A stretch of 48,745 bases of DNA, taken from a virus. Location: the IMG/VR virus record IMGVR_UViG_3300036046_000008. One strand, written 5' to 3'. The notes beneath the pieces were generated by a model. That model did not search any database. It was not told the DNA's origin and worked only from the letters and a program-made list of their open reading frames with translations. Below are positions 797 to 43,596 of the stretch, piece by piece (positions within the stretch are counted from its first letter, which is position 1; the number at the start of each line of letters is the position of its first letter). The translations under genes and the position numbers were made by a program.

Positions 797-833
797 TAGG
801 GGGTCTCATTATATGCCCTGCAATTTTCGCGCG
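797..833 (-). promoter_or_regulatory. Conserved promoter-like element copy (TATAATGAGACCCCCTAC core)
   Basis: Minus strand reads CGCGCGAAAATTGCAGGGCATATAATGAGACCCCCTAC; abuts the tRNA 3' end and precedes gene 509..778. Confidence 0.6.
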
Positions 834-906
834 TGGGCCCCGTGGGACTCGAACCCACACCTTACGGATTAAAAGTCCGCTACTCTGCCAATTGAGCTAG
901 AGGCCC
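834..906 (-). tRNA. tRNA-Lys (anticodon UUU)
   Basis: Manual cloverleaf fold: 7-bp acceptor stem GGGCCTC/GGGGCCC, D-loop AATTGGCA, anticodon loop CTTTTAA, T-loop TTCGAGT, discriminator A; no encoded CCA. Confidence 0.85.
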
Positions 907-6523: not shown

Positions 6524-9500
6524 TTAGCTAACGAACGCTTCGAACGAGCCGAAACGTTCAATGGTGTCTACGGCGTCTTCGACCAGAGCTTGATAGAACG
6601 ATTTATCGATGTTCTGCCATTCCGATGGACCCAATTCCTTAACGACGGCGGCCTCCTTCCAGAAATATCCCTTTGTCCCAGACAGCGCGTACTTGCGCCC
6701 GTCTTTGACTCGGTAAAGCGTACCGCCGCCTGTGCCTTCGCGGACCGGAACGAAGCTTCCAGACCGTCCGACAAAGTGCATACGCTCGTCGCCGAAATCG
6801 ATGTAGATGGCGCCATTGGTTACCGAACGGACTTCGCACAAGTCTTGGAGGTGGATCTCGTCATGCGTGAACAAAGTTCGATAGACATATGGGTGTTGGA
6901 ATTGAGCGCCGACAGCGTCCCATTTGTCGCCTTCTCGGGCGATGTAAACGGCGTCGTTGACAAGACAGAATTTCTCGTATGTCTTCTCGTGGTCGAACGT
7001 GTACCCGTATCGCTCGCCAAATTCGGTTACAAACTGAATAATATCGGGCGTGGCATTAGGGATCTTGACTGAGTCCGTCTTAATATGCACTACCGGGAAG
7101 CCTTGTTCCTGGATGGCATGCTTGAGATCAATCATGAACAAAGCGCCACGCTTCGCGACGATGTTGTCTTTATTTCGAGGATCGCGGAACACCGTATCAA
7201 ATTTGGCACTGGTTAGGCCATAGACAATATTGATGACGATCTTCAACGCATGAGACAAGTCTTTGGCGGACTGGGTATCAGCGTCTGAGATAAAAGAAGC
7301 TAATTTTCCATCTAGCATCTGCGCCGCAGCAGAATAATCGCCTTTCTTAATGGCGAGCCGCGCGTCGAGCAGATCGTTAAAGTTCTTTGTATAAGGCCCG
7401 AACAAATTTAGAAGGCGAATAGACGTCGGGTGCATCGAGGCAACGTCAAGAACCGCAACATTCTCGTACATCCCTGGTTCAGCGTATACGTACCCGCCTT
7501 CACTAGGATCCTCGCCACGGTAAGAGCTTTTGCCGCCCTCGAAAATATAACCCGGAAACAACTCGCTGAGATCTGTATAGACGAATGAGCCTTGAGGAGA
7601 GGGGTCTCCCTCAAATACGATTCGCGCCGTGTGCTTCTGCGTAGTGTCGTTGACGCTGAGCCCGCTGATCGAAGCGAGAATCTGTCTCGCGACAAAGTCC
7701 TGGGCCCTGGACTCCGCGACTTTCTCCGTTGCAACGACATCGTTGGCGCAATAGTCGGCAACTTCGATCCAACGCTCCTCTGGCACCGGCTCGTCCCACG
7801 GGTGGTCGAGCTCTTTGTGGACGATGCCGAGCTCGATCTGGAACTTCTTCAGTCCTTGCTTCTTGGACGAGTAGTCGTACACATCGGCGTAAGATAGCCC
7901 ATACGCCTCGCCGAAGGTGGCGTTGCGGTTCTTGTCCACAATCAAAGCTTGACTGAGTCTATACAAACGCTCATTGTCGTAACCCAAGAACGCAGCGTAC
8001 AAAATATGGTTGTCATAGCGTCTGTTGTTGAACCCCACGAGCTTTTGAGCAAGAAGAGGTTCGATGTCATCGGGCTTCGGATTGATCATCCGCACAACAG
8101 GGTGATCGCCCTCAAACTTCCAACACAACACGAACAGGTTAGGGTACACCTCAACGTCGAAATATACGAGCGCGTCGCCTTCTCCGGAGATAGAGACTGT
8201 ACGATCCTCCGACTTAAACTTCATCTCCCTGACAAGCCGCAGACATTCCAACGGTCGGTTCGTGCTGTTGTTGGCGAAAGCCACGATCGAGGACCGCAGA
8301 TCTGTGACATCATAGCTCAAGTCAGAAGAATATGCGTCATCCAAGACCTTCTTGATGAAGTCGATTGACGACTTCGTGTTAGGATGAATCTCCTTTCTCA
8401 AATTTCGAGCAATCATCTCTCGAAGCCCGCGCTCAGATTTGATCTGTTTGACATCGATCATCTTTCTCTCCTTCATAGGCAACCCGCTTGTGATTTGCGC
8501 AACTTCATGGTCGTTGCATCGCGACAGCCTACGGCGAAGAGACGAGTCCCCGAGCAAAGTTTTAATCTCAATGCCCGGAGAGTACTCGTTATCTAGTTCT
8601 TTGATGTCGCCGTTGTAAATATAATGCAGATGCAGCCCTTTCCCGCTCATACTCAACTCAGTATAGGTTGGCGGCCACGCACTAGCAGCTTCAAGATTCT
8701 TATCGAGGGACTTCTCTCCACTTTCATCGCGCAAATCGAAATCGATCACAATATGATTCTTAGGAATCTTGACGTAATGCACCAGCGAAGTGTCCAGATC
8801 GGTCAGGGTGGTCTTGACTAAGCCCCAACGCTTACTAGGCTTACCTGTTTCTGTGGCGTACTGAGCCGGCATGTCTGCCAAAATATCGTCAAGCAACGAT
8901 CGGCGTTGAGCCAGATTGATTGAGAACGATTTAGGCGACGACGGAGCGACCCCAGTCAACTTCTCCAGCTTGAAGTCTTTGAACAAGCTGTACACCTCCT
9001 GACCGTCGACCATCGTTCTCTCTACGAAATTCTCGTAGTAATTCATCATCTCGTTACGAAATATCTGCATCTGCATCGGTTTGTTGTTTGACTCGGTGCA
9101 GAATTCCTTATACAAAGCATAGGCCCTTTTAAGGGTAATCCCGTCCGGCGCTTTCAACTCGGGCAAATATGCTTCGACGAAGTTGTAGAACACGTTGGTT
9201 GAATACATCATCTTCGTGGGGCGGTAGTTGTCATAATAATTCTTGCCCATGCTTTGATACACTCGAAGACAGTGCGATGCAATAGCGCCGAGTTCAAATT
9301 CGATCCTCGACATCAACACTTGATAATGATCAAACGTGTGCAAATTTCCGGTTGGTTGGACATCGATCAGTCGCCGCAATAAACCAGACCGAGAGTCACT
9401 AATCTTGACGGGGTTGTTAGTGCCCATAAACAGAAACGTGTTGATGCGTACATTATACTGAGATTTATACTTCTCGTTGATCACCATATTCTCATGAGAG

Positions 9501-10225
9501 ACCAACGAATTCAACCTGGTGTTGTCCTCAATCCGGGACAAATCGCCATCGTGTTGGATTCCCACCAACGGGTTCTCTTTGAAGACCTCCAAGGCAAAAG
9601 AGGTCCCGTTGGACCCGAGCGCCTTCGCGTCAAAGACGTTCGTATAGCCGGAGAATAGACGCTCAATAATATGAAGGACTGTGGATTTACCGGTCTTCGC
9701 GGAGCCATAAAGCACAATAAACTTCTGAATGTCGACAGAGTCTCCCGCCACAACGGAGCCGATTGCCCACTCAATCTTAGCGAGCTCCTCCTCAGAATAT
9801 AGCTTTCCAACCAGTTCGTCCCATGCGTCGTGTGCACCATCCTCTAGGGCGTAGTCAAGACGATGGCTGATGTAGTCGGTCTTCTTGACTTTCGTATTGG
9901 AGAACGCCAGGAACTGGTTCAACTGATGATAATTGTTCTCGTTGTTCCGCACATAGCGCAAAAATGCGTCATGCGACCCGGTAGAGTGCTCTTCCATCCA
10001 GCGAATATAAGGCTGATCAAACTCCGCGGCGACTCGGCGGAGCTCTGCATCGACAAGCTCAACCACCCTGTAAATATCCGTCGACCAGAGCCCCGCTTCC
10101 TCGTCCCAGATGGCATAAAACTTCCCGCCGCGCGTCATCAAGTCTCGCGACTTACGACTGAGGAATTCAGGGTAGACTTCGGTCTTCTTTCCGTTCTTTC
10201 GAACCTTTGCCTTGAAGAAGTCCAC
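6524..10225 (-). CDS. Multidomain replicase: P-loop (SF3-helicase-like) + primase-polymerase (AEP-like) + family B DNA polymerase with 3'-5' exonuclease
   Basis: 1233 aa; Walker A GSAKTGKST and LFMGTNNP; AEP-like VIDFDLRD and SGKGLHLHY; exo motifs FDVEV, GFNNRRYD, YCAND; pol motifs DVASMHPT, KIVINIVYG, KTDS; GTG start with GAAGGAGGGAG RBS. Confidence 0.7.
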   Translation of the reverse strand: MDFFKAKVRKNGKKTEVYPEFLSRKSRDLMTRGGKFYAIWDEEAGLWSTDIYRVVELVDAELRRVAAEFDQPYIRWMEEHSTGSHDAFLRYVRNNENNYHQLNQFLAFSNTKVKKTDYISHRLDYALEDGAHDAWDELVGKLYSEEELAKIEWAIGSVVAGDSVDIQKFIVLYGSAKTGKSTVLHIIERLFSGYTNVFDAKALGSNGTSFALEVFKENPLVGIQHDGDLSRIEDNTRLNSLVSHENMVINEKYKSQYNVRINTFLFMGTNNPVKISDSRSGLLRRLIDVQPTGNLHTFDHYQVLMSRIEFELGAIASHCLRVYQSMGKNYYDNYRPTKMMYSTNVFYNFVEAYLPELKAPDGITLKRAYALYKEFCTESNNKPMQMQIFRNEMMNYYENFVERTMVDGQEVYSLFKDFKLEKLTGVAPSSPKSFSINLAQRRSLLDDILADMPAQYATETGKPSKRWGLVKTTLTDLDTSLVHYVKIPKNHIVIDFDLRDESGEKSLDKNLEAASAWPPTYTELSMSGKGLHLHYIYNGDIKELDNEYSPGIEIKTLLGDSSLRRRLSRCNDHEVAQITSGLPMKERKMIDVKQIKSERGLREMIARNLRKEIHPNTKSSIDFIKKVLDDAYSSDLSYDVTDLRSSIVAFANNSTNRPLECLRLVREMKFKSEDRTVSISGEGDALVYFDVEVYPNLFVLCWKFEGDHPVVRMINPKPDDIEPLLAQKLVGFNNRRYDNHILYAAFLGYDNERLYRLSQALIVDKNRNATFGEAYGLSYADVYDYSSKKQGLKKFQIELGIVHKELDHPWDEPVPEERWIEVADYCANDVVATEKVAESRAQDFVARQILASISGLSVNDTTQKHTARIVFEGDPSPQGSFVYTDLSELFPGYIFEGGKSSYRGEDPSEGGYVYAEPGMYENVAVLDVASMHPTSIRLLNLFGPYTKNFNDLLDARLAIKKGDYSAAAQMLDGKLASFISDADTQSAKDLSHALKIVINIVYGLTSAKFDTVFRDPRNKDNIVAKRGALFMIDLKHAIQEQGFPVVHIKTDSVKIPNATPDIIQFVTEFGERYGYTFDHEKTYEKFCLVNDAVYIAREGDKWDAVGAQFQHPYVYRTLFTHDEIHLQDLCEVRSVTNGAIYIDFGDERMHFVGRSGSFVPVREGTGGGTLYRVKDGRKYALSGTKGYFWKEAAVVKELGPSEWQNIDKSFYQALVEDAVDTIERFGSFEAFVS

Positions 10226-10228
10226 CGG

Positions 10229-10774
10229 CTAAACTCCCTCCTTCTCGATGACGTAAGCATTCATCTGATACCAGATTTCTGTATTTCGTTGGTCTCGGGG
10301 CGGATGCATCAGTGGAAACAACCCTCCCGATCCATTGTAATCGTAGGTTCGCCAAATAAACCGATCCAGAATCTCGTCGATCTCCCTTTCTACGGCAGGG
10401 TTACGACTATAATCCCGATCGGAACACGGCGGAAACGACAAATTACGGAGAAAAAGCCAAAAATGGTTACGCGGATCTCCCCCGGCGAGAAAAGCAAAGC
10501 GGCGTGTAAGCGCCACTAGCATCTCAAGGACGGAGCATTTTTGGCCAGGCCAGAACAAATCGGCTTCGGAAATATCATGTGTGTCCAAGAATTCTTCGCG
10601 CAGCACTCGTCCGTCTTCTAGACGGTTATCATCGTTGGGGATAAACCAGATAAACTCCTTGAGATAAAGCTGATTAAACAGACGATGACACGTGCGATTG
10701 GGATTCTTGACGCGCGACGACAGAATGAGCTCATAGAGCCACTCCAAATATCGATCGTCAAGGTATTGGCTCAC
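10229..10774 (-). CDS. hypothetical protein
   Basis: Track ORF 181 aa; ATGA-type overlap with upstream gene. Confidence 0.6.
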   Translation of the reverse strand: MSQYLDDRYLEWLYELILSSRVKNPNRTCHRLFNQLYLKEFIWFIPNDDNRLEDGRVLREEFLDTHDISEADLFWPGQKCSVLEMLVALTRRFAFLAGGDPRNHFWLFLRNLSFPPCSDRDYSRNPAVEREIDEILDRFIWRTYDYNGSGGLFPLMHPPRDQRNTEIWYQMNAYVIEKEGV

Positions 10775-11550
10775 CCATCATCACTCCGAAACTTTCGGAC
10801 TTTCCGGAAGGCGCGTGCTGCATCGTGCTGCAGACTATCTTCCTCGTCATACCCCAGAACGTTCTTCTCCCACGAGCCGTAGTCGATAGTGATCAGAACG
10901 TCTAGGCGAAGCTGGTCGTTACGAATATAGACACAAACATTGTCGTCCGAATACTCGTCGAAACGACTGAGATCGGCGTATTCCCCAATTGTGCGCTCAG
11001 GCAACGAGACGACGGTATCTGTCTCATCGACTAGAGCTCCGTCTTCTTCGTAATAGGTCCACTCGACCTGAGCATTGCTGGGTTCGTTGTAGCGAAACTC
11101 TTCTTCTGTGATCAAATATGGAGTGCGGCCCGGCTCTGGGCGTTCGTCCGATACCGGATGATAAGACGCTTCTTGCAGTTTTTCGAGTGGGATCGGATCG
11201 TCCTTATTGGGGCCGTCGGCGTTAGAACGCTCCGGCACTGTATAGAGTCGGGCGTAATCTGTATAGACTGCGTAATCGGTGTCGACCTCTCCCAGCGGTG
11301 CCGGCTTGGCGTTCTCCTCGCCGTTTGGGGCCGGCACGACCTCGTATTCCTCTCGCTTATACAGAGTTTTGTAATATAGCTGGGCTCGTTTCACCTCCTT
11401 TTGCAGAATATCCTCAGAGCGCTCTGCCATAGCTTGCCGCACGAGAATTCCGCCCACGGTTGCTCCGACGCCGAGCCCCAACGCGTAGAAGCCAAACGGG
11501 GACGTTACCCTATGAGCAAGCATCGCCCGAATCAGGTTCATAGAATTCAC
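10771..11550 (-). CDS. hypothetical membrane-anchored protein
   Basis: 259 aa; N-terminal hydrophobic helix then acidic domain. Confidence 0.55.
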   Translation of the reverse strand: MNSMNLIRAMLAHRVTSPFGFYALGLGVGATVGGILVRQAMAERSEDILQKEVKRAQLYYKTLYKREEYEVVPAPNGEENAKPAPLGEVDTDYAVYTDYARLYTVPERSNADGPNKDDPIPLEKLQEASYHPVSDERPEPGRTPYLITEEEFRYNEPSNAQVEWTYYEEDGALVDETDTVVSLPERTIGEYADLSRFDEYSDDNVCVYIRNDQLRLDVLITIDYGSWEKNVLGYDEEDSLQHDAARAFRKVRKFRSDDG

Positions 11551-12500
11551 ACCTCTCGAAAGTTAACTCGGTCGACAATGACGCCATCCACGTTAAAATC
11601 GAGAAACACGGACAGCTCGCGCCCGTTTACAAAATCCCGCAAACGCGGATCATCTCCGTGCAGGAACCCGAAGTCAATATAGTTGTCTCCGGTTCCGTCC
11701 TCGTTGATGCGCCAGCCAACAACCTGCCCAGCTTTGGACCGTTCCATTCCGAGCATGTCGTAGACCTCGTTCAGGAACACATGTCCCTTTGCCTTAAGCA
11801 AATCGTTCGCATAGTTCTGCTGAGCGCGCAGGAACAGATAGTTGGCGTGCGGCACGTCCTGCCAATGCTGGTTGTACTCGTCAAAGAAACGAGCATACGG
11901 CGAATATGCGGTCTCTCCGATACGCTTACGCTCAACTACCTCTTTCGAACCTGTGTCTTTGTTCTCGATCGCCACGCGCTCAGAATATGCGTCGTAACGC
12001 AGGTCACGCTCAACTTCCTCACCGAATTCCTGCCGAACCCGATCGCGATACAGCTTGAACGCCCGGTCCAGTCCATTGTATGCCACCGTCAGGGCAGCCA
12101 CACGAGTGTTGAGGATGAAGTGCGCACGAGCAAACGCGGCGACGGTCAGGGTGCCCACCAAGATTGTGGGGGCGTACAGCCGACCCACGTCAACAAAGGT
12201 CCGCGTGTAAATATAGATGCGATCCCGCAGTGCATCTTCCTCCGTATAGTGATGCTTGGCCACCATCTCGGAGTCTTGCTCGACAGTGCGCACGTTCTGC
12301 AGGTCCTGCTGCGTCTTCTGCAGAACCTCATCGACGCGGAGAGTCGCCCGCGACGCCAGAACGGTGGTTGCCGCAAATCCTACCACGCCCGCACCGAACA
12401 GAATATGAGGCGAGTTAACCTTGCCCGCCAAGACCAGCCGCCCCATCTTTTGGGAGACGGCTGGTGACATGGCTTTTCTAATAAGTTGCAACTTGTTCAT
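11547..12500 (-). CDS. membrane protein, paralog of 15329..16117
   Basis: Track ORF trimmed to ATG at 12500 with GAAAGGA RBS; shares N-terminal TM pattern and C-terminal blocks with 15329..16117. Confidence 0.55.
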   Translation of the reverse strand: MNKLQLIRKAMSPAVSQKMGRLVLAGKVNSPHILFGAGVVGFAATTVLASRATLRVDEVLQKTQQDLQNVRTVEQDSEMVAKHHYTEEDALRDRIYIYTRTFVDVGRLYAPTILVGTLTVAAFARAHFILNTRVAALTVAYNGLDRAFKLYRDRVRQEFGEEVERDLRYDAYSERVAIENKDTGSKEVVERKRIGETAYSPYARFFDEYNQHWQDVPHANYLFLRAQQNYANDLLKAKGHVFLNEVYDMLGMERSKAGQVVGWRINEDGTGDNYIDFGFLHGDDPRLRDFVNGRELSVFLDFNVDGVIVDRVNFREV

Positions 12501-12510
12501 CTTAGTCCTT

Positions 12511-13197
12511 TCAGTCCAGTGGTTCGGGTTGCGAGAGATCGAGCAAATATCCGGACGAGATCCGCCGGACTTTGGCGCCACTTAGATCGTACCAACCCCA
12601 ATTGGCGTCGGTGTACGCCGGAGTCAGATCCAGCAGGTTGTAGAGATCTGAGACGGACACGTGCTGATAGCGATCGAGCAGATCATACATCCGATCCAGG
12701 ACTTCGTGCGCCTCGGCCCGTGTTGTTAGAACCACCTCTTCAAAATTGTGGCTAGTACGGGCTCTCCGACTCAACTCTCGGCGAGGCTGTCTGTCGTCCG
12801 GAAAAGGCGGACGCGTTCGGCTACCACGCCCGGCGTACTGCTCGTACTGAGTGTAAACTCGCGGTCGGCCACCACGCCCAGACCGAACTCTCGGATTGTA
12901 GTAGTGACTGTCCCCGAATAAGAGCCGCTCAATTCCGCCGCTCACCGCATCAGTGATCATGTCTTTCGCAGCGGGAATAAGCACGTCAAGAACCACATAC
13001 TGTCGAACGTTCTGCGCATCGGCCCCTAGGAACGTCTCACGGACTCGACTGCCAAGAGACCGTTTTCTACGAACCACACGGTTGACAACGACCTTCTCGA
13101 TCTTCTTGTCTTCAGCCGGCGGGGCGGGAGGAGGCGCCGGCTGCTGGAACGCTGTGCGCGTGTTTGGAGGAAACTCTTCCATAATATAACCTTCCAT
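12511..13197 (-). CDS. hypothetical protein
   Basis: Track ORF 228 aa; Pro-rich N-terminus. Confidence 0.5.
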   Translation of the reverse strand: MEGYIMEEFPPNTRTAFQQPAPPPAPPAEDKKIEKVVVNRVVRRKRSLGSRVRETFLGADAQNVRQYVVLDVLIPAAKDMITDAVSGGIERLLFGDSHYYNPRVRSGRGGRPRVYTQYEQYAGRGSRTRPPFPDDRQPRRELSRRARTSHNFEEVVLTTRAEAHEVLDRMYDLLDRYQHVSVSDLYNLLDLTPAYTDANWGWYDLSGAKVRRISSGYLLDLSQPEPLD

Positions 13198-13202
13198 TAG
13201 TC

Positions 13203-13239
13203 AAAAATAAAAACTAAAGATCCTTGTGGGGATCTTTAG
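13203..13239 (-). terminator. Intrinsic-terminator-like hairpin (conserved-loop family)
   Basis: Plus CTAAAGATCC-TTGTGG-GGATCTTTAG preceded by A-run, so U-tract on minus-strand RNA; downstream of 13253..13516. Confidence 0.55.
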
Positions 13240-13252
13240 CTCTGAGAGGTTC

Positions 13253-13516
13253 TCAGGGGGTAGGGGTGTCCTCAGTCGTTCCAGAGGTGTCAGGATCGAG
13301 GATCGTGCACAGTGCATTGTCAACATAGTTGGCAGCGTACTGTCCGGCAATCGCGCCCAACGTGATGGAGCCGATAGCAATCTGCATTTTCTGCAAAGGG
13401 CTATCGTCTTCCATTCCGTTAGACGAGAAAGTCCGGCTAGTAGCGCCAGCCACACTAGAGGCGACGACATACCGTACAAACGATCGAGCGATCCGAATTT
13501 TGGTCTCGGTGCGCAT
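13253..13516 (-). CDS. hypothetical protein
   Basis: Track ORF 87 aa; promoter element and GAAAGGAAG RBS upstream. Confidence 0.55.
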   Translation of the reverse strand: MRTETKIRIARSFVRYVVASSVAGATSRTFSSNGMEDDSPLQKMQIAIGSITLGAIAGQYAANYVDNALCTILDPDTSGTTEDTPTP

Positions 13517-13533
13517 GGGGATGCTTCCTTTCT

Positions 13534-13570
13534 GTAGGGGGTCTCATTATACGGCATGCAATTTTCGCGA
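13534..13570 (-). promoter_or_regulatory. Conserved promoter-like element copy (closest to consensus)
   Basis: Minus strand TCGCGAAAATTGCATGCCGTATAATGAGACCCCCTAC then GAAAGGAAG then ATG. Confidence 0.6.
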
Positions 13571-13649
13571 GAGACGGGCGCATGTTCAACTCGTGGCGTG
13601 GGCGGTAGCTACGCCAACAGGTTCTTCGGCTGTCGTTTAAAACCAGCAT

Positions 13650-13680
13650 CCGGTATAGGGGCCAACCCCCTACAGGAAAA
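13650..13680 (-). terminator. Hairpin downstream of 13711..14223 (different family)
   Basis: Plus TAGGGG-CCAA-CCCCTA palindrome. Confidence 0.35.
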
Positions 13681-13710
13681 CCCCTTGCTGGCTCCCGTCA
13701 TGCCCTGTGC

Positions 13711-14223
13711 TTACGCGCGATTCTGAAGGTGCGCGAGAAGCTGCTCTCTCGACATCGACTCCAACTCCGCTTGCGACAGTGTCGTCTCTGTGATCTCGGG
13801 CTCAGCCAAAGGAACGGTTTCGACCGTAGCGCGCTGCGCCTGCTGAATAAGATCGTTAGGCATCACCGCCAACATGAACTGAGCGGCCTTCTCCGGATTT
13901 TCGAACAAAGAGAACAGAAACGCGTCATACGCCGCGGTGTCCTTGAACGCCATCCAAATATCATCCGACTTAGAGAAGCGCTGCCCGTCAGCGCTACGCT
14001 CCCCGTAGGATAGCCGCACAATCTCCTTGACCAGTGCCAAAATCTTGGTAAGTTCCGGCAGAGTTACCTCGCGAACGTCCCCCTCGAGCATGGACTGGAT
14101 TTCCTGCATCTTCTCTCCAAGATGCAGATGGTCGACTAGCTCAGTCTTGGTGATGTTGAAATATAGCGTGCTTGTCTGCGTATTCCCGTTGAAATCTTCG
14201 TAGGTGATAGTCTGCTTATACAT
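13711..14223 (-). CDS. hypothetical protein
   Basis: Track ORF 170 aa. Confidence 0.6.
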   Translation of the reverse strand: MYKQTITYEDFNGNTQTSTLYFNITKTELVDHLHLGEKMQEIQSMLEGDVREVTLPELTKILALVKEIVRLSYGERSADGQRFSKSDDIWMAFKDTAAYDAFLFSLFENPEKAAQFMLAVMPNDLIQQAQRATVETVPLAEPEITETTLSQAELESMSREQLLAHLQNRA

Positions 14224-14566
14224 CCTCGTCCTCCGTGTCGTCTGGGTCTGTCCGCGGCGGGTTCAGTTCCTCAACCAGAATCGCATATAACAAAATCAGA
14301 TAGTTAATATGATCGATAATCTTTTCGTCCCACTCTTCGAGCGAGTGGGTATGAGGAGACTTCGCCATATCAAATATCGACACCGTATGCTTCGCCAGCA
14401 TCCCCGCAAGGGCGCCCGGGCGACTTGTATGCTGCAGATTCGCAGCGGTAGTAAAGTTCGCTAGAACGTCGACCTCCTTGGCGTACTCGCCTCGTTTAAA
14501 AGTTAAGACTGACGAGACTTGTTGGAAAATATGCCCCAACAAGGCGTCAAACTCTGCTTTCCTCAA
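14216..14566 (-). CDS. hypothetical protein (start inferred, TTG)
   Basis: Track ORF 14216..14773 has N-terminus overlapping gene 14628..14855 and a hairpin; trimmed to TTG after GGAGGAG RBS. Confidence 0.4.
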   Translation of the reverse strand: MRKAEFDALLGHIFQQVSSVLTFKRGEYAKEVDVLANFTTAANLQHTSRPGALAGMLAKHTVSIFDMAKSPHTHSLEEWDEKIIDHINYLILLYAILVEELNPPRTDPDDTEDEDV

Positions 14567-14580
14567 AACAACTCCTCCCA

Positions 14581-14616
14581 AAGAAAAACTAAAGAGCCTT
14601 GTTAGGGGCTCTTTAG
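14581..14616 (-). terminator. Intrinsic-terminator-like hairpin (conserved-loop family)
   Basis: Plus CTAAAGAGCC-TTGTTAGG-GGCTCTTTAG; U-tract follows on minus strand. Confidence 0.55.
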
Positions 14617-14627
14617 CTTTTGTGGAC

Positions 14628-14855
14628 TCAGATCTCGTCGGGGGTCGACTCGTCCGTCTTCTCCGGCTTGTTCTCGCAGTCGTCCGACTCCTCGGAGGTC
14701 GTCGACGTGAGAGCGTAGCCGAGCAGAAGGCCGGCGGCAAGCGTACCGCCAACAATGGCGACGCGCTTCCCAAGGGCCTTCCAGTCGACCACGATCACGG
14801 TCTTCGACTCGCTAGGAGCGTCGGCCGCGGGAGCGGGGGTCGGGGTGTGGGACAT
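14628..14855 (-). CDS. small membrane protein
   Basis: Track ORF 75 aa; central hydrophobic helix; promoter element upstream. Confidence 0.55.
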   Translation of the reverse strand: MSHTPTPAPAADAPSESKTVIVVDWKALGKRVAIVGGTLAAGLLLGYALTSTTSEESDDCENKPEKTDESTPDEI

Positions 14856-14871
14856 GGTGTTTCCTTCCTGT

Positions 14872-14912
14872 GAGGGGGTTTGGTCTCACTATAGAGGATG
14901 TAATTTTCGCGA
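14872..14912 (-). promoter_or_regulatory. Conserved promoter-like element copy (variant TATAGT)
   Basis: Minus strand TCGCGAAAATTACATCCTCTATAGTGAGACCAAACCCCCTC. Confidence 0.5.
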
Positions 14913-15290
14913 TTACTCGGTCTCGCAGAGCTCGAGAATATACGCTCCCGCCTCGTCAACGACGTCGCCAATTGTCAGATCCTCCGGCAACTTTGCCAGA
15001 AGGTCGTTGTCTGGCGCGAGCTCGGATACCTCACTAACCAAGGTGTCGCGATCCGGCAACTCATCACCCGCAAAGGTGAACAACATGGCGCCCATCTGCT
15101 CTGACGTGTCCACGCCAAAGAAAGCCAGCGCCTGGCAGAATTCCTCGGGGTCCTGCCCACCCTCGTAGAACACCTCATCCAGCTCGGCCCGCATTTCTTC
15201 TTGCCAAGTGGGGCCGCTATCCGCGCAGCCCGCCAAGGTCAAGATGCCGACCGTGGTAATTGCCGCGTACTTGCCAATCTTCTTCCACAT
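14913..15290 (-). CDS. putative lipoprotein
   Basis: 125 aa; signal peptide with lipobox LTLAGC; acidic mature part. Confidence 0.6.
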   Translation of the reverse strand: MWKKIGKYAAITTVGILTLAGCADSGPTWQEEMRAELDEVFYEGGQDPEEFCQALAFFGVDTSEQMGAMLFTFAGDELPDRDTLVSEVSELAPDNDLLAKLPEDLTIGDVVDEAGAYILELCETE

Positions 15291-15304
15291 TGTGATGCTC
15301 CTTT

Positions 15305-15335
15305 AAATATAGGGGGTTTAAATGTTGTCTAACTC
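15305..15335 (-). promoter_or_regulatory. Degenerate copy of promoter-like element
   Basis: Minus strand CATTTAAACCCCCTATATTTAAAGGAGCA before ATG of 14913..15290. Confidence 0.3.
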
Positions 15336-16117
15336 ACACGGTTGTAGTGTCGTGTCGGACTCACCATAAAATCCATGACAATGCACGGCCGATCGTCGTC
15401 TGCCATGGTGGTAGAGAACCGCAACTCCAAGAGCAGGTCTGAATTCCAACCGATGTCGTCAGAGAACTTCGTTAGATCTAGACCAAGTTGATTGTACAGA
15501 TCGCTCAGAGACGCGTAGAAGTCGTTGATGATCTTCTTGTTAATGTAGTTTTCTGCTCTCCTCATTGCCTCCATATCACTGTAGAAATATCGCCCTGCGT
15601 AGAGGTCATAGCACAGCACTGTGCCTACACCTTGAATAATGGGTTGATTGCGAACAGGGTTATCACGTACCCGATCTTGCGCAATCTCGTCTCTCAGTGC
15701 CCGTTCTTTACTTGAGCCCAGCTGCTCGGTAACCTTGTGCTTATACTCGGTGAACGCGCGCTCTGTCAGAGAATATGCAGCGACCATGGCGGCTGTCCGA
15801 CGATTACTGACATATACGGCGGCGATCAGGCACGCGCAAGAGACTACACCACTTGCTACCGCGGGAATATAAAGACGCCACGTCAACGAGACGATGTCTT
15901 CTTGAGCCAACGGTTCGGCAACGACATAGTTCTGAGCTGCGTCGTCTGCCCGCCGGTCTTTCTCCTCCTCGAGAATATAGGCGGCTCGAAAACCGGCTTG
16001 TGACGCAAGCACCGTCGTTGTAACAACCCCGGCAAGCCCTACAGTTGCAAGTAATGTAGGCGCATTGTCGACGAGAAACTTTTGCGACATCCGCATCACA
16101 TCAGTCAACATCGTCAC
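15329..16117 (-). CDS. membrane protein, paralog of 11547..12500 (start uncertain)
   Basis: Track ORF 262 aa; shared TM and C-terminal blocks with 11547..12500. Confidence 0.55.
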   Translation of the reverse strand: MTMLTDVMRMSQKFLVDNAPTLLATVGLAGVVTTTVLASQAGFRAAYILEEEKDRRADDAAQNYVVAEPLAQEDIVSLTWRLYIPAVASGVVSCACLIAAVYVSNRRTAAMVAAYSLTERAFTEYKHKVTEQLGSSKERALRDEIAQDRVRDNPVRNQPIIQGVGTVLCYDLYAGRYFYSDMEAMRRAENYINKKIINDFYASLSDLYNQLGLDLTKFSDDIGWNSDLLLELRFSTTMADDDRPCIVMDFMVSPTRHYNRVS

Positions 16118-16283
16118 TCCTCTCCATCATCTGTTCTAATAGTCGAATTTCACGTTCACGCTTTATTTGGTAATAATATGCTCGCGTCAATAAGACCGTG
16201 ACAAACGAGCATAAGAGAAACGACGTACTGAGAAAGATATATGCCGCTAAAACCCAGATGTCGCCTGGAACCGACGATCTCAC
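16101..16283 (-). CDS. small membrane protein
   Basis: 60 aa; GTG start after AGGAGGA RBS; hydrophobic core. Confidence 0.5.
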   Translation of the reverse strand: MRSSVPGDIWVLAAYIFLSTSFLLCSFVTVLLTRAYYYQIKREREIRLLEQMMERSDDVD

Positions 16284-16399
16284 TGGTCCTCCTGTAGTTG
16301 TCGGCGGTGACGCAGTTCGATCAGATCTTCAGCCATGAGCGACAGGAAATATGGCCCGAACATCAACAGAAGAATAATGGCGGAAATGACGTCGCCCAT
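16280..16399 (-). CDS. small hydrophobic protein (39 aa, not in track)
   Basis: Manual translation MGDVISAIILLLMFGPYFLSLMAEDLIELRHRRQLQEDQ; GAAGGGAAG RBS; stop overlaps next start as GTGA; coordinates approximate. Confidence 0.35.
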   Translation of the reverse strand: MGDVISAIILLLMFGPYFLSLMAEDLIELRHRRQLQEDQ

Positions 16400-22800: not shown

Positions 22801-24081
22801 TCGCGCCGTCATATTAACGAGATCGTCAACTGTCGTACGTGGAAATACATCACGGAATGCTTCGCGTACCGTTTGCAATACCGATCCGAGCCCCTTGAAA
22901 ATATTCGCGAGGCCTTCGATCAGATCAGTGCGACCACCGGCTTTAGCCCAGCCGCTCAGCAGCTCATTTCGCGCGCTCGACGACTCTTCAGTAATATTGC
23001 CAAATACAGTACTAATACGCGTGAACAGGTTCGTTGCCTGATTAAAGTTACCGATAACTGTACGGAAAGATTCCGACCATCCTGAGGCAACGGCTTCTTT
23101 GGCCGTATCCATAAGTTGAGTAAAAGTTCTTACCTTAGTCGCAGCCTCAACACCGGTTTTACCCAACTCTTGAATCTGAGCAATTTGCTCGGCAGTAAAG
23201 CCTTTCGCCTGAAGTTCAGCCTTGGACATCTCCCCAGTGAAGCCTTGGAGAGTGGTTGTTAGAACTTCACTAGTAACCCAACCCTTCTCCAAGGACCCCC
23301 GAAATGTATTGCCTGCGTCGGTCCACTGCTTGAAAGTCGTATCAATGGGAACATTTTCGATCGTTCCGAGTGCCTTGCCCGTCTCGAACAAAGCTTTCTG
23401 GAAGACCTGCCCACCCATACCCGCGTTGACGACCGAATTCCAGTCCATCAACTTGACGCTGCCAGCGGCAATCGCCTGTGACAACTGATACATTGCAGTG
23501 GACGCTTGCTGCGAGGATGACCCTGAGATCGCCGCCAGGTTCGCCAGGCCCTTGATCGACTGAACTGAGGTGTCGAGGTTCACGCCTGCTGCGGTGAACG
23601 TACCAATATTCCGAGTCATCTCGGCAAAGTTATAAATCGTCTTGTCGGCGTACTCGTTCAGCTCATCAAGCGCATCATTAACCTGGCGCAAGTTTGTGTC
23701 ATTAGTGTTTGCCAAAATAGTCTGAATAGACCGAATATTTAGCTCGTACTCTTGAAAACCTTGCATGACGGGCTCAAGAGTAAGAGATTTAACAAGACTA
23801 ATCCCGGCGTCGACGGCCCGATTTGTGATGTTTGCCAACGCCGTAATAGCAACCGTCGCCATGCCGAGGAAGGCGGTACTCACTCGACCAGCCGACTGCT
23901 CCAAATTGTTCAAATTCACTTTAGACGCTTCGGCCCCCACATTTTGAAGCGCTTTTTGTGAAGAACCAAAGTTCATGGCGTCTTTAAGCTTGCTGATGGC
24001 AGCCATCGTGACCGACGCCGCAGTTAGAAAATCTTTGTTGTCGAATTTCATCGTGAGAATTCGACTTTCAACGGTTGCCAT
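19837..24081 (-). CDS. tail tape measure protein
   Basis: About 1414 aa; Ala/Gly/Leu-rich with long hydrophobic stretches typical of TMP; start set to ATG overlapping upstream stop (TGATG). Confidence 0.8.
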   Translation of the reverse strand: MATVESRILTMKFDNKDFLTAASVTMAAISKLKDAMNFGSSQKALQNVGAEASKVNLNNLEQSAGRVSTAFLGMATVAITALANITNRAVDAGISLVKSLTLEPVMQGFQEYELNIRSIQTILANTNDTNLRQVNDALDELNEYADKTIYNFAEMTRNIGTFTAAGVNLDTSVQSIKGLANLAAISGSSSQQASTAMYQLSQAIAAGSVKLMDWNSVVNAGMGGQVFQKALFETGKALGTIENVPIDTTFKQWTDAGNTFRGSLEKGWVTSEVLTTTLQGFTGEMSKAELQAKGFTAEQIAQIQELGKTGVEAATKVRTFTQLMDTAKEAVASGWSESFRTVIGNFNQATNLFTRISTVFGNITEESSSARNELLSGWAKAGGRTDLIEGLANIFKGLGSVLQTVREAFRDVFPRTTVDDLVNMTARFREFTEGLIPSQETLEQIGRIATGVFSALSIGIKVIKGIAGFIFDLAAALFGASGGFLEIAAKVGDFFKKVDDGVPQVSVLSGVVESVTTGVQGLSDAFKRFGDFVAPILSQIGEFGKSVRERFSEVFAGIDWSSIFTLGGAAGAGALAVAIRKLVSEGFGVSLDLSGGFLDSVKDSLQGLTGVLEGMQQNLKANALLKIAGAIAILAGALVILSMINAADLAKAIGAMSAGFAVLLGGMAIMDRIVDSPAAVKMPALAAGLVLLSTSLLILAAALKRLSGLSWEEIAKGLVGIAGGLLALTKAANALAKDPKGLIRAGLGIIAIATAMVILAQALEDLAALSWSDLARGLTAVAAALIVISQGMKMMPPLKGQAVSLVIIAGALLLLSKAIQSFAGPELKESGKGLLVMAAALVILAKAMSKMPTNMLANAAALLVLSGALLIISKVVQTFGGMSIGEIAKGLITLALALTIIGVALAAMSGTMAGAGALLVAAAAIAIFIPVITSLSELSWGDLVKSLISFTIAMTLLFAAGVAFGSAAPLIAAGGAALIVFGLGLSAVGAASLIFAAAFYVAIKAVQVGVQIIRDGFEHVATAIPRLANALARGMIEFVATIGKGATELVKAFSALLGALLDAVIQNVPKMGQAFRTLVLEGIKNIRALFPTLITVGFEMLVRLMRGIRDNIPQIVRLGSDIVVRFLNGLASNMNRIVTAGVNVVVKFINGVSNNMSRVVNAGINLITRFIREVSQGANKLVNEGADAVIKFINGVATTIRNRSGDLRAAGANLAGAIIDGMTGGLASGVGRVVAEARRIAIAALQAAKDVFGINSPARETMLLGRYFDDGLVVGLDNNSKQVQKSAARVGNAAISAMKASLKDMDKMMDGDLNIRPVVAPVLDLTSFRKDAATANALLRNGRLTPQVSVNRAGDIAQARAVSAQAFAQQAELARQARVEFKQYNNSPKALSALEIYRNTRNQLDLAKEALSQL

Positions 24082-24470
24082 CAGGAAGTCACCACCTTCC
24101 AAGCCTCAGCGGCCATCGCGTCAAATATCGGACGAATTGCGGGGTTAATGTAGTCACGGCCTTGAACATACCCGCCGTTTCGAGTGCCATGGCCTACCTG
24201 CAGTAGAACCGCGATGGGCGCCCCATCCACCACGTGTGAATTGCCCCAGATGATGGAATAGGTATCACGTTCTTTCTTAATTTCATAGTACCACGACTGG
24301 GCGGTAACACCACTGTCAACAGGGGTAGCCGCCTGCAACGCTGCAACGCCGATGTCGCCATACTTTGCCAGAATATCTAAGGCTTGTCCGGCCGCCATCT
24401 TTTGCAGGAGAGCCTCCGTCTTCTGAAAGGAGCCCGAGGACGAAAACGAAAACACAATTGCTCCCTTCAA
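24081..24470 (-). CDS. tail-module protein (HK97 gp10-like size and position)
   Basis: 129 aa, immediately upstream of TMP. Confidence 0.45.
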   Translation of the reverse strand: MKGAIVFSFSSSGSFQKTEALLQKMAAGQALDILAKYGDIGVAALQAATPVDSGVTAQSWYYEIKKERDTYSIIWGNSHVVDGAPIAVLLQVGHGTRNGGYVQGRDYINPAIRPIFDAMAAEAWKVVTS

Positions 24471-25085
24471 TCAAGCATTGAACAAGGAGACCACTTCCGC
24501 AACCGGCGGCAGTCTGGGATGAGCCTCGTCAGACCCATAGAGAATCTTTTCAATCTCGTAGATCTTGGAGGAGTTGGCTTCATTTGAGTCAACAAAAATA
24601 TGAGAGGAGGGACGAGCCCCAGCAATTGGCACTGGAGTGGTTCTAAATATAAAGGTAAACGGTTTCAAAGTGGGTGTAGCACTGATTGTTTCGTAAGACG
24701 TTGTTTCGATGGTCGCAACCACATTGTAGACAATATGAATCCGATACCCTTCGCCAGTGCGCGTACGATAACTGAATCCGAACACGGACGAAGGCGACTG
24801 ATCCCCCACGAAAGTACGACCGTCGCAAAGAGCCAGAATGTGATCCTCGAGCATGTAGGGATAAATATACGCGCCGACCTTAGCAGAGTAATCTGACAGA
24901 TCTTGTTCAACGTTGTAGCAAATCCCGTCAAAATATAGTGGGTTCCCTGGGACCGCCGCAACATCCTCTGTCAAGGACACCAAGCCGTTCCACTCGACAG
25001 ACTCATTGTTATCGAAAAACAAAACTCCCCGATCGATCCCGGATTCAAAAGTCCTAGGAAGAGTCTCCCAAGAGAGTCGTGTCAT
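24471..25085 (-). CDS. tail protein, member of 3-gene paralog family (major tail subunit candidate)
   Basis: 204 aa; shares W..YE.GVD.GV, FGFSYRT, GY.IH.VYN and LYG...P.LP blocks with 25094..25783 and 26365..27024; TAGGAGA RBS. Confidence 0.55.
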   Translation of the reverse strand: MTRLSWETLPRTFESGIDRGVLFFDNNESVEWNGLVSLTEDVAAVPGNPLYFDGICYNVEQDLSDYSAKVGAYIYPYMLEDHILALCDGRTFVGDQSPSSVFGFSYRTRTGEGYRIHIVYNVVATIETTSYETISATPTLKPFTFIFRTTPVPIAGARPSSHIFVDSNEANSSKIYEIEKILYGSDEAHPRLPPVAEVVSLFNA

Positions 25086-36309: not shown

Positions 36310-37131
36310 TTAGCCATCTTCTTCCATTTTGACCAGCTTGGCTTCAAGACGTTGAACCGTCTTCTCGATCTGCCGCAACCGCGCGTTCCCCATCATCGGA
36401 CTTGGATTGTTGGGGTCTCTCTTCTCGCCCTTAGCATTGTAGTCTCCTAGGGTCCGATTAATTCTTGCCGCAATAGCTTCAATGTCTTTCTCACTGAGAG
36501 CCACGTCTGTTTCGCCTCCTTCTTCCGAATTCCCTTGAGCAAGTCTGAGAACCTGGGGTAGATTCAACGCGCCAGTGTCCCAGTGCGAATTCTCTGGAAC
36601 CGAGGCATGCGGCAAATGGCCGCGAAAGGCTTTATAGGCTTGACCGGACAACCTCTGAGGCGCGCTCAGCCCATACCTGGGGTTGCGAGTAAACTTTGGT
36701 ACGAGAGCCAGAGGAATCCCCCAATGTTTATTCAACCAGAGCGCAATGCGAGCCAGAAACGCTAGGTGCTTCTCAGTGAAGTCTCCGACCCAAAGTCCTC
36801 GGTAACGATCGGACAGAACACGATCCGAAAACGAAATGACCTCAATCTGAAAAGCACGATCCGTGTTAGTCTCCACGCCGCCTGGCAGATTTGCCAAGGC
36901 GCGAGAAGACATATTAGCCGGGAAATGTTGACGAATCTGTTCAGTACGAGGATCAATGGTGATAGTTGGAGCGGTAGAGCCCCCAGAATAGCCCGGCCAG
37001 GAAGTACCCTCTGTCGTATGCCAGACACACTTGTACAACGCGTCCGACCAGACGACGCCGCGGTACTTATTCGCATACCACTGCGAAGACCGGTCTGCTC
37101 CAGGCAAATAGAGTTCAGTCATCGGCTTCAC
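36310..37131 (-). CDS. putative endolysin (amidase-like peptidoglycan hydrolase) with C-terminal coiled coil
   Basis: 273 aa; WHTTEG and NSHWDTG blocks; adjacent to LysM gene. Confidence 0.45.
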   Translation of the reverse strand: MKPMTELYLPGADRSSQWYANKYRGVVWSDALYKCVWHTTEGTSWPGYSGGSTAPTITIDPRTEQIRQHFPANMSSRALANLPGGVETNTDRAFQIEVISFSDRVLSDRYRGLWVGDFTEKHLAFLARIALWLNKHWGIPLALVPKFTRNPRYGLSAPQRLSGQAYKAFRGHLPHASVPENSHWDTGALNLPQVLRLAQGNSEEGGETDVALSEKDIEAIAARINRTLGDYNAKGEKRDPNNPSPMMGNARLRQIEKTVQRLEAKLVKMEEDG

Positions 37132-38713: not shown

Positions 38714-39220
38714 TCACCCCACAACGACATAAAGCGTATCAGGATCTTTAGTAACAATCGCGTCATACTCGGCAAGGGTCCCGCTCCACCATTGGCCTGC
38801 CTCACCTTGAGGCCCCTGCTCACCTTGAGGCCCCTGCTCACCTTGAGGCCCCTGCTCACCTTGAGGCCCCTGCATCGGCCCGATGTTGACCCAATCAGAA
38901 CCATCCCAAATATAACCGTTGTTGGTGTCTTCGGTAATGTACAAATCGTTCAGATCAGCGCTAACCGGCAAATTTGCAAACGATGGCACAACTCCTACAA
39001 TAGTAACGCCCTCTCCACGAGGCCCAGGCGGACCGACAGGACCTTGGATGCCCTGAGGACCAGTCGCCAACGCTTCGCCGAGCTCTGAGAAGGGCGTAAT
39101 TCCATCCCCAATATAAAAAACTCTAAGATCGGTAACGAACCCGATCTCACCGTCTAGCAAGATAGGATTTGAGTTGAGCCATTCGCTTTCAGTTCCTCGC
39201 CGAATTCGAATTACATACAT
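38714..39220 (-). CDS. tail fibre protein with collagen-like (GPQGEQ)x4 repeat
   Basis: Track ORF trimmed to ATG with AAGGAG RBS; N- and C-termini paralogous to 40245..41804. Confidence 0.6.
   Translation of the reverse strand: MYVIRIRRGTESEWLNSNPILLDGEIGFVTDLRVFYIGDGITPFSELGEALATGPQGIQGPVGPPGPRGEGVTIVGVVPSFANLPVSADLNDLYITEDTNNGYIWDGSDWVNIGPMQGPQGEQGPQGEQGPQGEQGPQGEAGQWWSGTLAEYDAIVTKDPDTLYVVVG
38801..38872. repeat. Perfect tandem repeat, 18 bp x 4 (CTCACCTTGAGGCCCCTG)
   Basis: Seen in sequence; encodes GPQGEQ collagen-like triplets in 38714..39220. Confidence 0.9.
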
Positions 39221-39240
39221 CAAACGCTCCTTACCCGTAG

Positions 39241-40224
39241 CTACTTGGAGAGCCACGCACAATCGGAAGAAGCCAGCGACTTAAGAAATTCCCGCGTCCG
39301 TGGTTCACCATCAGCCAGATACCAATTAACGCCCGGACGGTTATTCCGCGTCGAATTAAACCAAGCCACAGTCATAAATCGTTTGGAAGCCACGATAACC
39401 GACCAAGTAGAAACCCATTCGTCAGCAGTATGCGTACCAGTTTCGCCGAAACCAAACAAACCAGCGTACCGAGCCCGCTCTGCCCACTTCAGAATTCGGC
39501 CCACGCGGTTTGCGGGCCCATCTTTGGGGTCGCTAAGGGTGCCGCCGTGATAGACGTCCATTCCTAAAAGCTTCCAGCGCTCCAACAAATCTTGGGGGAA
39601 CCATTCAGCAATCTCAGTGTCAGTCCACGTGTCATGCGCGCCCCAAGGAAATCCATTCATGATAGGGCACAACGTTACTTGGCCAGTGCCACCAAGCCGA
39701 TCCGCAACATCCAGAAGACGCCGCCAGGTACGTGTATAGTGATCATACGTCATGTCGCCCACGGGCTCATGCGCCCACGTGATCAATGCCGGTTGAGACC
39801 ATGTCTGGTACTCCAAAACCCGACGCTCAAAATCAGCGTCAGTAAAATTAAGGCCCGAAAACGATCCCCACGGCAACGAGCCCCGTGCCCACGCCGTCTG
39901 CGCCACTGACCGTTCTTTTTCAAGCTCGGTCGGCTTACAATAATAACGCTGCACACCAGGCAAGCCTAGACGAGCAACTTCATCTTCGTAAGTAGGCAGA
40001 GGGTGGGCCCATCCGAGATAAATCTTGCTCGGCTGATGACCCGGGATCACCCCTTCGGAAGGCTCGCCGTCACCGGGATCGGAACCGCCGTCTTCGTCAG
40101 GCTCGTCTAGACGGGCAAGTACTTCCATTTTGAAGTCCAAAAACTGCTTTTCAAAATTCTCTTGCTGCGCCTTTGCGCTGGCCTTATACTCTTCAAACTC
40201 AGCCGAGGTCGGGACTTCAACCAC
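39241..40224 (-). CDS. tail-associated protein, possible glycoside hydrolase-like domain
   Basis: 327 aa, Trp-rich; between two fibre genes; function is a guess. Confidence 0.35.
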   Translation of the reverse strand: MVEVPTSAEFEEYKASAKAQQENFEKQFLDFKMEVLARLDEPDEDGGSDPGDGEPSEGVIPGHQPSKIYLGWAHPLPTYEDEVARLGLPGVQRYYCKPTELEKERSVAQTAWARGSLPWGSFSGLNFTDADFERRVLEYQTWSQPALITWAHEPVGDMTYDHYTRTWRRLLDVADRLGGTGQVTLCPIMNGFPWGAHDTWTDTEIAEWFPQDLLERWKLLGMDVYHGGTLSDPKDGPANRVGRILKWAERARYAGLFGFGETGTHTADEWVSTWSVIVASKRFMTVAWFNSTRNNRPGVNWYLADGEPRTREFLKSLASSDCAWLSK

Positions 40225-42987: not shown

Positions 42988-43422
42988 CTATCCTTTGTGG
43001 CGACGGAGTGTCTTTCGTCCCCCATGCTCAATGTGCATCGAGGTCGCCACCAAACCGCCGGTCAGAATTAGAAGCAAGACCACGACTTCGCCGACGCCAT
43101 CGATCAAGTTAGTTTCGAGCCCTGAGAAGAATAAGATGATGGTTAAGATCGCTCCGAAAACCATCATCAGATAGGCCCAACGAGTCACAACGACAAAGCG
43201 ATTAAAACTATGGCCCCACATAAATACCAATGCAACCACCGACAACGTACCCACGAAATACTCAAGAGTCCGTTCGGCGGAGCCTACGATAAAAAACGTT
43301 GGCGAGAAACCAAACACGATCAACGCAAGGTTGTAAGCCGTCAGAGAACACACAGCGGTCCAAAAAGCTTGCTCACGGCCAAACAAAGCAAAGAAACGCT
43401 GCTCAATCGGTTTTGGAGTCAT
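42988..43422 (-). CDS. multi-pass membrane protein (paralog of 43597..44046)
   Basis: Track ORF 42988..43590 trimmed to ATG with GAGAAGGAAAG RBS; shares WAYL block. Confidence 0.45.
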   Translation of the reverse strand: MTPKPIEQRFFALFGREQAFWTAVCSLTAYNLALIVFGFSPTFFIVGSAERTLEYFVGTLSVVALVFMWGHSFNRFVVVTRWAYLMMVFGAILTIILFFSGLETNLIDGVGEVVVLLLILTGGLVATSMHIEHGGRKTLRRHKG

Positions 43423-43594
43423 CTTTCCTTCTCTCTGGCAAGGGATGTTTGGCCTCCCAAAGATCCATTCGATGTTTGATCCACCTGCGTAGAGTCTCGA
43501 TGAGAATCGTAACCAACCCAGCCAACGCAAAGTAGAGAAGAGCCAAAGGATCCGTTCCTGAAGGCGGTGCCTGAAAAAACAGTAAAACAACCAT
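43403..43594 (-). CDS. small membrane protein
   Basis: Track ORF 63 aa; ATG after GGAGG RBS; TM helix then charged tail. Confidence 0.4.
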   Translation of the reverse strand: MVVLLFFQAPPSGTDPLALLYFALAGLVTILIETLRRWIKHRMDLWEAKHPLPERRKDDSKTD

Positions 43595-43596
43595 GG

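Follow-up and report, generated by a model that had tools for sequence, protein, structure and literature searches.

Phage phi29 encodes two membrane-anchored organisers of DNA replication, p16.7 and p1, which are non-enzymatic, lie beside replication genes, and consist of a helical stalk followed by a C-terminal domain. Here, we characterize two proteins, A and B, encoded in a viral DNA sequence of 48,745 nucleotides (nt; IMG/VR record IMGVR_UViG_3300036046_000008; the window, by which we mean this whole stretch), and compare them with the phi29 organisers and with other members of their own family, DUF6353 (Pfam PF19880). Catalogued DUF6353 proteins include gp50/gp59 of Gordonia phage OlgasClover, gp42/gp57 of Arthrobacter phage Zeina, and gp15/gp18/gp22 of Faecalibacterium phage FP_oengus. 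These belong to the same family as A and B, and show the same two-subfamily layout and the same gene order with respect to the primase/polymerase gene. Nothing essential separates A and B from them: the window proteins are new metagenomic members, 34–47% identical to the DUF6353 proteins of these three phages and no more than 56–60% identical to any database protein. The finding is, in this sense, an ordinary one: a catalogued family in its customary place.

The two genes, both on the minus strand (as are all genes in the window), are as follows.

11547..12500, minus strand: A, a long-type DUF6353 protein of 317 amino acids (aa), sharing the architecture of B but with a longer inter-helix loop and two insertions in the C-terminal domain.
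15329..16117, minus strand: B, a short-type DUF6353 protein, 262 aa long if the GTG at 16117 is used; the ATG at 16111, giving 260 aa, is the likelier start.

The later start of B is favoured by the preceding sequence, GGAGAGGAG, and agrees with the gene call of the Joint Genome Institute (JGI; 260 aa). The ATG of A at 12500 is backed by both a ribosome-binding site (AAGGA-N6-ATG) and the JGI call.

A and B are ancient paralogues, representing a long and a short subfamily of DUF6353 that have been kept together as core genes of a siphophage lineage and are found side by side in essentially all of its genomes. A reading of the DNA made earlier from the sequence alone (hereafter, the sequence-only reading) had taken them for paralogues, quoting N-terminal strings that are indeed present (GAGVVGFAATTVLAS in A, GLAGVVTTTVLAS in B); formal alignment bears this out. 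Pairwise, the two proteins are 26% identical over 237 residues (BLASTP, E=4e-21), and profiles built from 72–76 relatives of each align over 248 columns with a probability of 100% (hhalign, E=1.4e-59). Both pass the curated Pfam gathering cut-off for PF19880 (25 bits) and cover nearly the full length of the 253-position model: A at 231.3 bits (1.7e-68, model positions 4–251) and B at 262.8 bits (4.1e-78, positions 2–252). Full-length matches to phrog_2152 are also obtained (A, 1.1e-75; B, 7.9e-78; profile positions 4–270/273). Four residues—P85, Y125, N193 and W224—are invariant over 106 sequences.

The family is large and uniform. A profile of the DUF6353 C-terminal domain, searched against 1.84 billion representative proteins, matches 7568 clusters at 50% identity, and A has more than 6500 close relatives. 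In the best 150 of the 7568 representative clusters the architecture is constant, with the domain at the end of a protein of ~250 aa; no informative domain fusion is found among the matches listed, all of which show the standard architecture. Homologues are often deposited as 'membrane protein'. A literature search returned no paper naming DUF6353 or PF19880, and no functional data on the family were found in the literature on related phages or in overexpression screens. NCBIfam gives no matches for the A/B gene block, and a Foldseek search of viral predicted structures (BFVD) returned uncharacterised family members only, often several per genome.

Gene order provides the evidence that bears most directly on function. 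The genes that join A to the replication module are listed below.

12511..13197, minus strand: p228 (phrog_4079, 1e-64; JGI start 13182, giving 223 aa), ending 10 nt before A.
10771..11550, minus strand: protein C (phrog_4695, 2.7e-27; JGI start 11541, 5 nt after the A stop).
10229..10774, minus strand: p181 (phrog_4678, 1.3e-56), between C and the primase/polymerase gene, and present in nearly all related loci.
6524..10225, minus strand: a fusion of primase, helicase and family-B DNA polymerase (1233 aa), at the downstream end of the p228-A-C-p181 chain.

A is packed tightly into one operon with the polymerase: p228 and A are separated by 10 nt, A and C by 5 nt, C and p181 overlap by 4 nt, and p181 lies 3 nt from the polymerase gene. 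The fusion protein carries Pfam domains DUF5906 and Pox_D5 together with NCBIfam P4-family primase and DNA polymerase II segments, and shares 50–57% identity with its counterparts, annotated 'DNA primase/polymerase', in phages of Gordonia, Arthrobacter and Faecalibacterium. In 80 IMG/VR loci retrieved by way of the neighbour p228, the order reads minor tail, p103, B-type gene, TAC17 (a gene described below), p228, A-type gene, C (where present), p181 and primase/polymerase; the same order is seen in Gordonia OlgasClover, Arthrobacter Zeina, Streptomyces GoblinVoyage and Faecalibacterium FP_oengus. About 50 further loci in bacterial genomes, retrieved by A-type motifs and mostly from Clostridia, contain one to three B-like copies, p228, an A-type gene, p181, primase/polymerase and helicase, with the RNA polymerase gene present in some of them; chromosome-sized records with such loci include Hungatella hathewayi and Clostridiales bacterium CCNA10. 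The linkage between A and the primase/polymerase gene is retained in all related loci examined, and the gene immediately before the long DUF6353 gene is always p228. p228 itself is basic, with an Arg/Gly-rich segment (isoelectric point, pI, 11.6) followed by an acidic C-terminal domain; a search of its profile against PDB chains gave no matches.

The sequence-only reading described A and B as two-domain membrane proteins with a single N-terminal transmembrane segment. The two-domain description holds, with membrane insertion as a prediction; the single segment gives way to two hydrophobic helices in each protein. In B these span residues ~21–43 and ~82–104 (Kyte-Doolittle means over 19 residues, 1.70 and 2.06; Hessa sums, 1.8 and 1.5 kcal/mol), and in A residues ~32–50 and ~112–130 (Kyte-Doolittle means, 1.63 and 1.65; Hessa sum, ~3.3 kcal/mol). 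By comparison, soluble proteins in the window have Hessa sums of 4.5 or above, and strongly hydrophobic ones, such as the tape measure protein, fall below 0. The hydrophobicity of A and B is marginal, yet distinct from that of the soluble proteins of the window. An AlphaFold2 (AF2) model of B, based on 106 sequences, has a mean confidence score (pLDDT) of 90.8 and consists of a helix (residues 2–17), an antiparallel hairpin of two helices (19–63 and 72–133), a further helix (135–152) and, after a poorly ordered linker, a C-terminal alpha/beta domain. In the long subfamily the average charge is +4.4 at the N-terminus, -2.1 in the loop and +2.4 after helix 2, a bias towards an arrangement with both termini inside (N-in/C-in); the short subfamily shows the same trend more weakly. 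Judging from these sequence features, the hydrophobic helices of A and B probably insert as an N-in/C-in hairpin, with the juxtamembrane helix and the acidic C-terminal domain in the cytoplasm.

Conservation across the two subfamilies peaks on one face of helix 1 (S19, P20, L23, G27, G30, T34, L37 and A41), with further conserved sites at Y83/P85/G90 and, just after the second hydrophobic stretch, at I103, R107, A110, A113, A114, Y115 and Y125. The resulting motifs (S-P...L..G..G...T..L...A; Y.P....G; R..A..AAY) place small and polar residues on one face of the hairpin. Between subfamilies, conservation is strongest in the columns of the first transmembrane segment and of the juxtamembrane helix, and the inter-helix loop is variable in both length and sequence. 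The conserved small/polar face, taken with the variable loop, suggests that the hairpin, instead of anchoring passively, may be a specific helix-packing or oligomerisation unit, possibly of A with B.

The C-terminal domain is acidic (median pI 4.6–4.7, median net charge -5 to -6), and no invariant acidic, His, Cys or Ser residues of catalytic type were found in its alignments. Its model aligns over 62–70 residues, at 2.5–3.6 Å, with the POTRA domains of BamA, TamA, FhaC and Toc75, with which it may have a beta-alpha-alpha-beta-beta core in common. POTRA domains are protein-protein interaction modules, and an anchor followed by such a domain, a possible parallel to A and B, is the layout of the FtsQ/DivIB type.

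For the function of A and B we put forward, tentatively, one possibility ahead of the others: that they are core membrane tethers or scaffolds of the replication module, acting by protein contacts. Under this proposal, (i) A and B would insert into the membrane as non-enzymatic hairpin tethers or scaffolds, (ii) the acidic cytoplasmic C-terminal domain would recruit the basic, Arg/Gly-rich p228, p181 and/or the primase/polymerase by protein-protein contacts, and (iii) the replication module would thereby be tethered at the membrane. Protein-protein contacts are proposed rather than DNA binding because the C-terminal domain is too acidic to bind DNA. In a bolder and more doubtful version, an unrecognised membrane-anchored complex would be made up of the DUF6353 paralogues (two to four), p181 and p228, the last possibly bearing a C-terminal domain of the same kind. 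It would organise replication by the primase-helicase-family-B polymerase in a large phage lineage that extends over Actinobacteria and Firmicutes: a phi29-style factory, invented independently.

The comparison with phi29 is proposed as a functional analogy only. Like p16.7 and p1, the DUF6353 proteins are neighbours of replication genes and combine a helical part with a C-terminal domain. They differ in that (i) the predicted anchor is a two-helix hairpin, whereas that of the phi29 organisers is single, (ii) the C-terminal domain is acidic (pI ~4.6) and so would not bind DNA, and (iii) there is no sequence match: a DUF6353 profile searched against all PDB chains (E<=10), the C-terminal domain structures of p16.7 among them, gave chance hits only (E ~0.4). 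Moreover, protein priming is not known from the window phage.

Several points weigh against a replication scaffold. Firstly, the functional link comes from gene order, and in phages genes may be kept together by common timing instead of a common function. Secondly, Hessa sums of only +1.5 to +3.3 are marginal for bilayer insertion, and the two apolar stretches are offset by ~11 residues in the AF2 hairpin; membrane insertion is uncertain on both counts. In an alternative that we consider distinctly unlikely, A and B are soluble or peripheral helical hairpins—tightly packed, Ala/Gly-rich antiparallel coils of ESCRT-III/PspA-like shape—that would form homo- or hetero-oligomers and so hide their apolar stripe. 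Thirdly, p228, whose motif SVSDLY..L.L....D..WGW resembles the core of the DUF6353 C-terminal domain, aligns with that domain at a probability of only 53% (hhalign, E=1.3e-4, 36 columns), a sub-significant, suggestive result. Fourthly, B lies 3 kb upstream of A in a separate transcription unit, in the company of small membrane peptides and a lipoprotein, a setting that looks more like an envelope-directed early cassette.

Two assignments are set aside. Membership of the ESCRT-III, PspA or Vipp1 families calls for a charged helical hairpin with a match to the family profile, which A and B do not show; and p228 is not counted as a bearer of the DUF6353 C-terminal domain, the alignment being below significance, and is retained as a lead.

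The immediate surroundings of B comprise the following features.

16280..16399, minus strand: a JGI-called open reading frame (ORF) for a 39-aa membrane peptide, directly upstream of the 60-aa ORF.
16101..16283, minus strand: an ORF for a 60-aa membrane peptide, with a GTG start after GGAGGA and a Hessa sum of -0.71, absent from the JGI calls.
14913..15290, minus strand: a predicted lipoprotein of 125 aa, acidic, starting MWKKIGKYAAITTVGILTLAGC and following directly after B.

The 39-aa and 60-aa ORFs overlap by 4 nt, and the 60-aa ORF overlaps the start of B by 11 nt, so that both are probably translated together with B; 16101..16283 is likely an overlooked gene for a small membrane protein. 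In relatives, too, the short DUF6353 gene is immediately preceded by small 'membrane protein' genes, and no sequence conservation was found in relatives for the small peptides upstream of B. The lipoprotein signal consists of a basic n-region, a hydrophobic core and the lipobox L-A-G-C.

This neighbourhood is where superinfection exclusion, one of the roles offered by the sequence-only reading, has its best case. A and B would then be envelope-directed early proteins, whose hairpin, with the small peptides and the lipoprotein, would block DNA entry by competing phages or alter a host membrane machine. B does sit among many small membrane-protein genes and adjoins the lipoprotein gene, its region is dense in promoter-like repeats of a kind typical of early genes, and the predicted membrane hairpin would suit such a role. 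We nonetheless regard exclusion as unlikely. Exclusion genes are usually accessory and variable, whereas A and B are core genes, strictly syntenic in phages of Actinobacteria and Clostridia. In the temperate, integrase-carrying FP_oengus, three DUF6353 copies precede the polymerase in a long lytic-direction operon, away from the integrase and outside the lysogeny module. It is on this core synteny across two phyla, and on the FP_oengus placement, that exclusion fits poorly. None of A, B, C, p228, p181, TAC17 and the lipoprotein matches a PADLOC-DB profile of anti-phage defence or exclusion systems. It is the lipoprotein and small-peptide genes, rather than DUF6353, that vary here. The lipoprotein has no family hit and no tblastn match in the 80 viral loci; not being found in related loci, it is taken to be an accessory gene. 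Lipoprotein exclusion factors exist in streptococcal phages, and by analogy an accessory role in exclusion would be more plausibly assigned to the lipoprotein than to A or B.

Lysis timing, the other role offered, fares no better. As holins, antiholins or holin regulators, A and B would resemble class II holins, which have two transmembrane helices in the same N-in/C-in topology as that predicted for DUF6353. The genes do lie downstream of the tail genes, the usual site of lysis genes in siphophages of Gram-positive hosts, and relatives carry a gene annotated as 'holin' a few kb upstream. Class II holins, however, are ~70–150 aa long, with strongly hydrophobic helices and an adjacent endolysin gene, and both A (317 aa) and B (260 aa) fall outside this description: DUF6353 proteins (260–317 aa) are three to four times larger and carry a large, conserved, soluble cytoplasmic domain, and their hydrophobicity is far below that of the window proteins at 42988..44046 (Hessa ~ -1.8). 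Nor does an endolysin gene adjoin them, the only endolysin-like gene (36310..37131) being more than 20 kb away. Size, weak hydrophobicity and this distance make lysis regulation a poor fit; in addition, A is packed with replication genes, and the genes are retained over a range of hosts whose envelopes differ greatly. We rate this explanation as improbable.

The remaining alternative involves the gene between the B and A operons.

13711..14223, minus strand: TAC17, 170 aa, matching Pfam Phage_TAC_17 'tail assembly chaperone' (1.4e-39).

A and B could be helpers of virion assembly, for instance chaperoning the tail or the tape measure protein at the membrane. The genes follow the tail genes, and TAC17 is a neighbour. 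Against this, the tail module has its own genes (24081..25085) in the chaperone position before the tape measure gene, and A and B show no similarity to structural proteins in PHROGs, BFVD or the PDB. Clostridia relatives keep the link between DUF6353 and the polymerase, while TAC17 is undetected there by tblastn with the window protein (E<=1e-4), a result that divergence could explain. A virion-assembly role seems to us very improbable. TAC17 itself is encoded at a distance from the place, ahead of the tape measure gene, that tail chaperones occupy, and its position next to the short DUF6353 gene is conserved in actinobacterial relatives; the name of the Phage_TAC_17 family may be out of step with the role of the protein here.

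Exclusion, lysis, a soluble hairpin and virion assembly all fit worse than a replication scaffold. Among the roles offered by the sequence-only reading, the scaffold alone gains support, from the place of A in a tightly coupled chain with the primase/polymerase gene and the retention of that linkage in related loci.

Protein C, the immediate downstream neighbour of A, had been described as having an N-terminal anchor similar to those of A and B, followed by an acidic domain. The anchor and the acidic domain are both found: C has one hydrophobic segment (residues 19–37; Kyte-Doolittle 1.75, Hessa 2.0), and the remainder is acidic (pI 4.4–4.5; 51 Asp and Glu versus 29 Lys and Arg). The likeness to A and B, which is limited to the anchor, is non-significant (BLASTP E=0.004, 64 residues). 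C has no Pfam hit, and aligns with DUF6353 at an hhalign probability of 2.3%. The anchor-only likeness and the hhalign result rule out C as a third DUF6353 paralogue. C is a fast-evolving protein with only three database relatives, and was found by tblastn in only some related loci, for which rapid divergence may partly account.

The region around B is also marked by repeats. A motif of ~45 nt, with core GGTCTCATTATA on the plus strand, occurs in ten copies (at 802, 2376, 2430, 4660, 13540, 14882, 16666, 16925, 17145 and 17600), where 2.5 matches are expected by chance. On the minus (coding) strand the motif reads TCGCGAAAATTGCATGnnnTATAATGAGACCCCCTAC, then GAAAGGAAG, then an ATG within ~35 nt, which mostly opens a small ORF of 39–103 aa. 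From their sequence, the copies look like phage promoters, with an invariant TATAAT and without standard -35 spacing. The 3' end of a tRNA-Lys(UUU) gene (833–906, minus strand) abuts one of them. Terminator-like hairpins on the minus strand (16989–16969, 16750–16715, 16459–16429, 14616–14589 and 13243–13210), several of which share the stem AAAGATCC...GGATCTTT, follow the repeat-driven small ORFs and directly precede three gene groups: the B operon, phrog_6802-TAC17, and p228-A-C-p181-polymerase. This layout of promoter, small ORF, terminator and operon suggests that B and A may be under read-through or antitermination control.

Positions 1–127 are an exact 127-bp direct repeat of 48619–48745 at the contig ends, indicating a complete, circularly assembled genome of ~48.6 kb. 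A search of the region for near-identical DNA in 50,697 phage records gave zero matches, and the phage is on this basis new. The window is a siphophage genome. It encodes tail-fibre-like proteins, large terminase, portal, protease-capsid fusion, major tail protein, tape measure, Dit and minor tail protein, followed by a run of small genes and then by the primase-helicase-family-B-polymerase fusion, a single-strand annealing protein and a helicase. Its kin, identified at the protein level, are the Gordonia cluster DJ (Deejayvirinae), Arthrobacter and Streptomyces BI phages and, further, Rhodococcus ReqiPoco6, Lactococcus P118 and Faecalibacterium FP_oengus. The host may be actinobacterial, judging from a weak WhiB-like gene. 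The inter-phylum lineage that contains the window phage has been described without mention of DUF6353 genes, and a YonO/crAss-like single-subunit RNA polymerase has been proposed as its signature (bioRxiv 10.1101/842583). The window encodes a polymerase of this type.

44540..47221, minus strand: a YonO-like 'RdRP-type' RNA polymerase (893 aa; phrog_4291, 'RNA-dependent RNA polymerase'), with a C-terminal helix-turn-helix.

The lineage combines a YonO-like RNA polymerase with the primase-helicase-family-B polymerase fusion, and its hosts span Actinobacteria and Clostridia.

Several side observations concern other parts of the window. Two strongly hydrophobic proteins (42988..43590 and 43597..44046, minus strand; Hessa sums ~ -1.8) are encoded upstream of the terminase gene, as is the sole endolysin-like protein (36310..37131, minus strand; a weak match to phrog_17214, 1.2e-11); from these, the lysis genes of this phage may be placed before the terminase rather than after the tail genes. 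Within the tail-fibre-like gene (38714..39262, minus strand), an 18-nt unit, CTCACCTTGAGGCCCCTG, is repeated in tandem over 72 nt (38801–38872), and probably encodes a collagen-like Gly-X-Y stretch.

DUF6353 is a large, multi-copy family. The phage lineage that carries it is common in soil and in human and animal guts, and apparently cannot do without it. Should the replication-tether idea prove true, it would show how this lineage arranges DNA synthesis at the membrane; otherwise, DUF6353 still has a conserved core function awaiting discovery. In either case, two ancient, co-retained subfamilies, locked to the primase/polymerase across two phyla, make a tractable target in cultured phages of Gordonia, Streptomyces and Arthrobacter.

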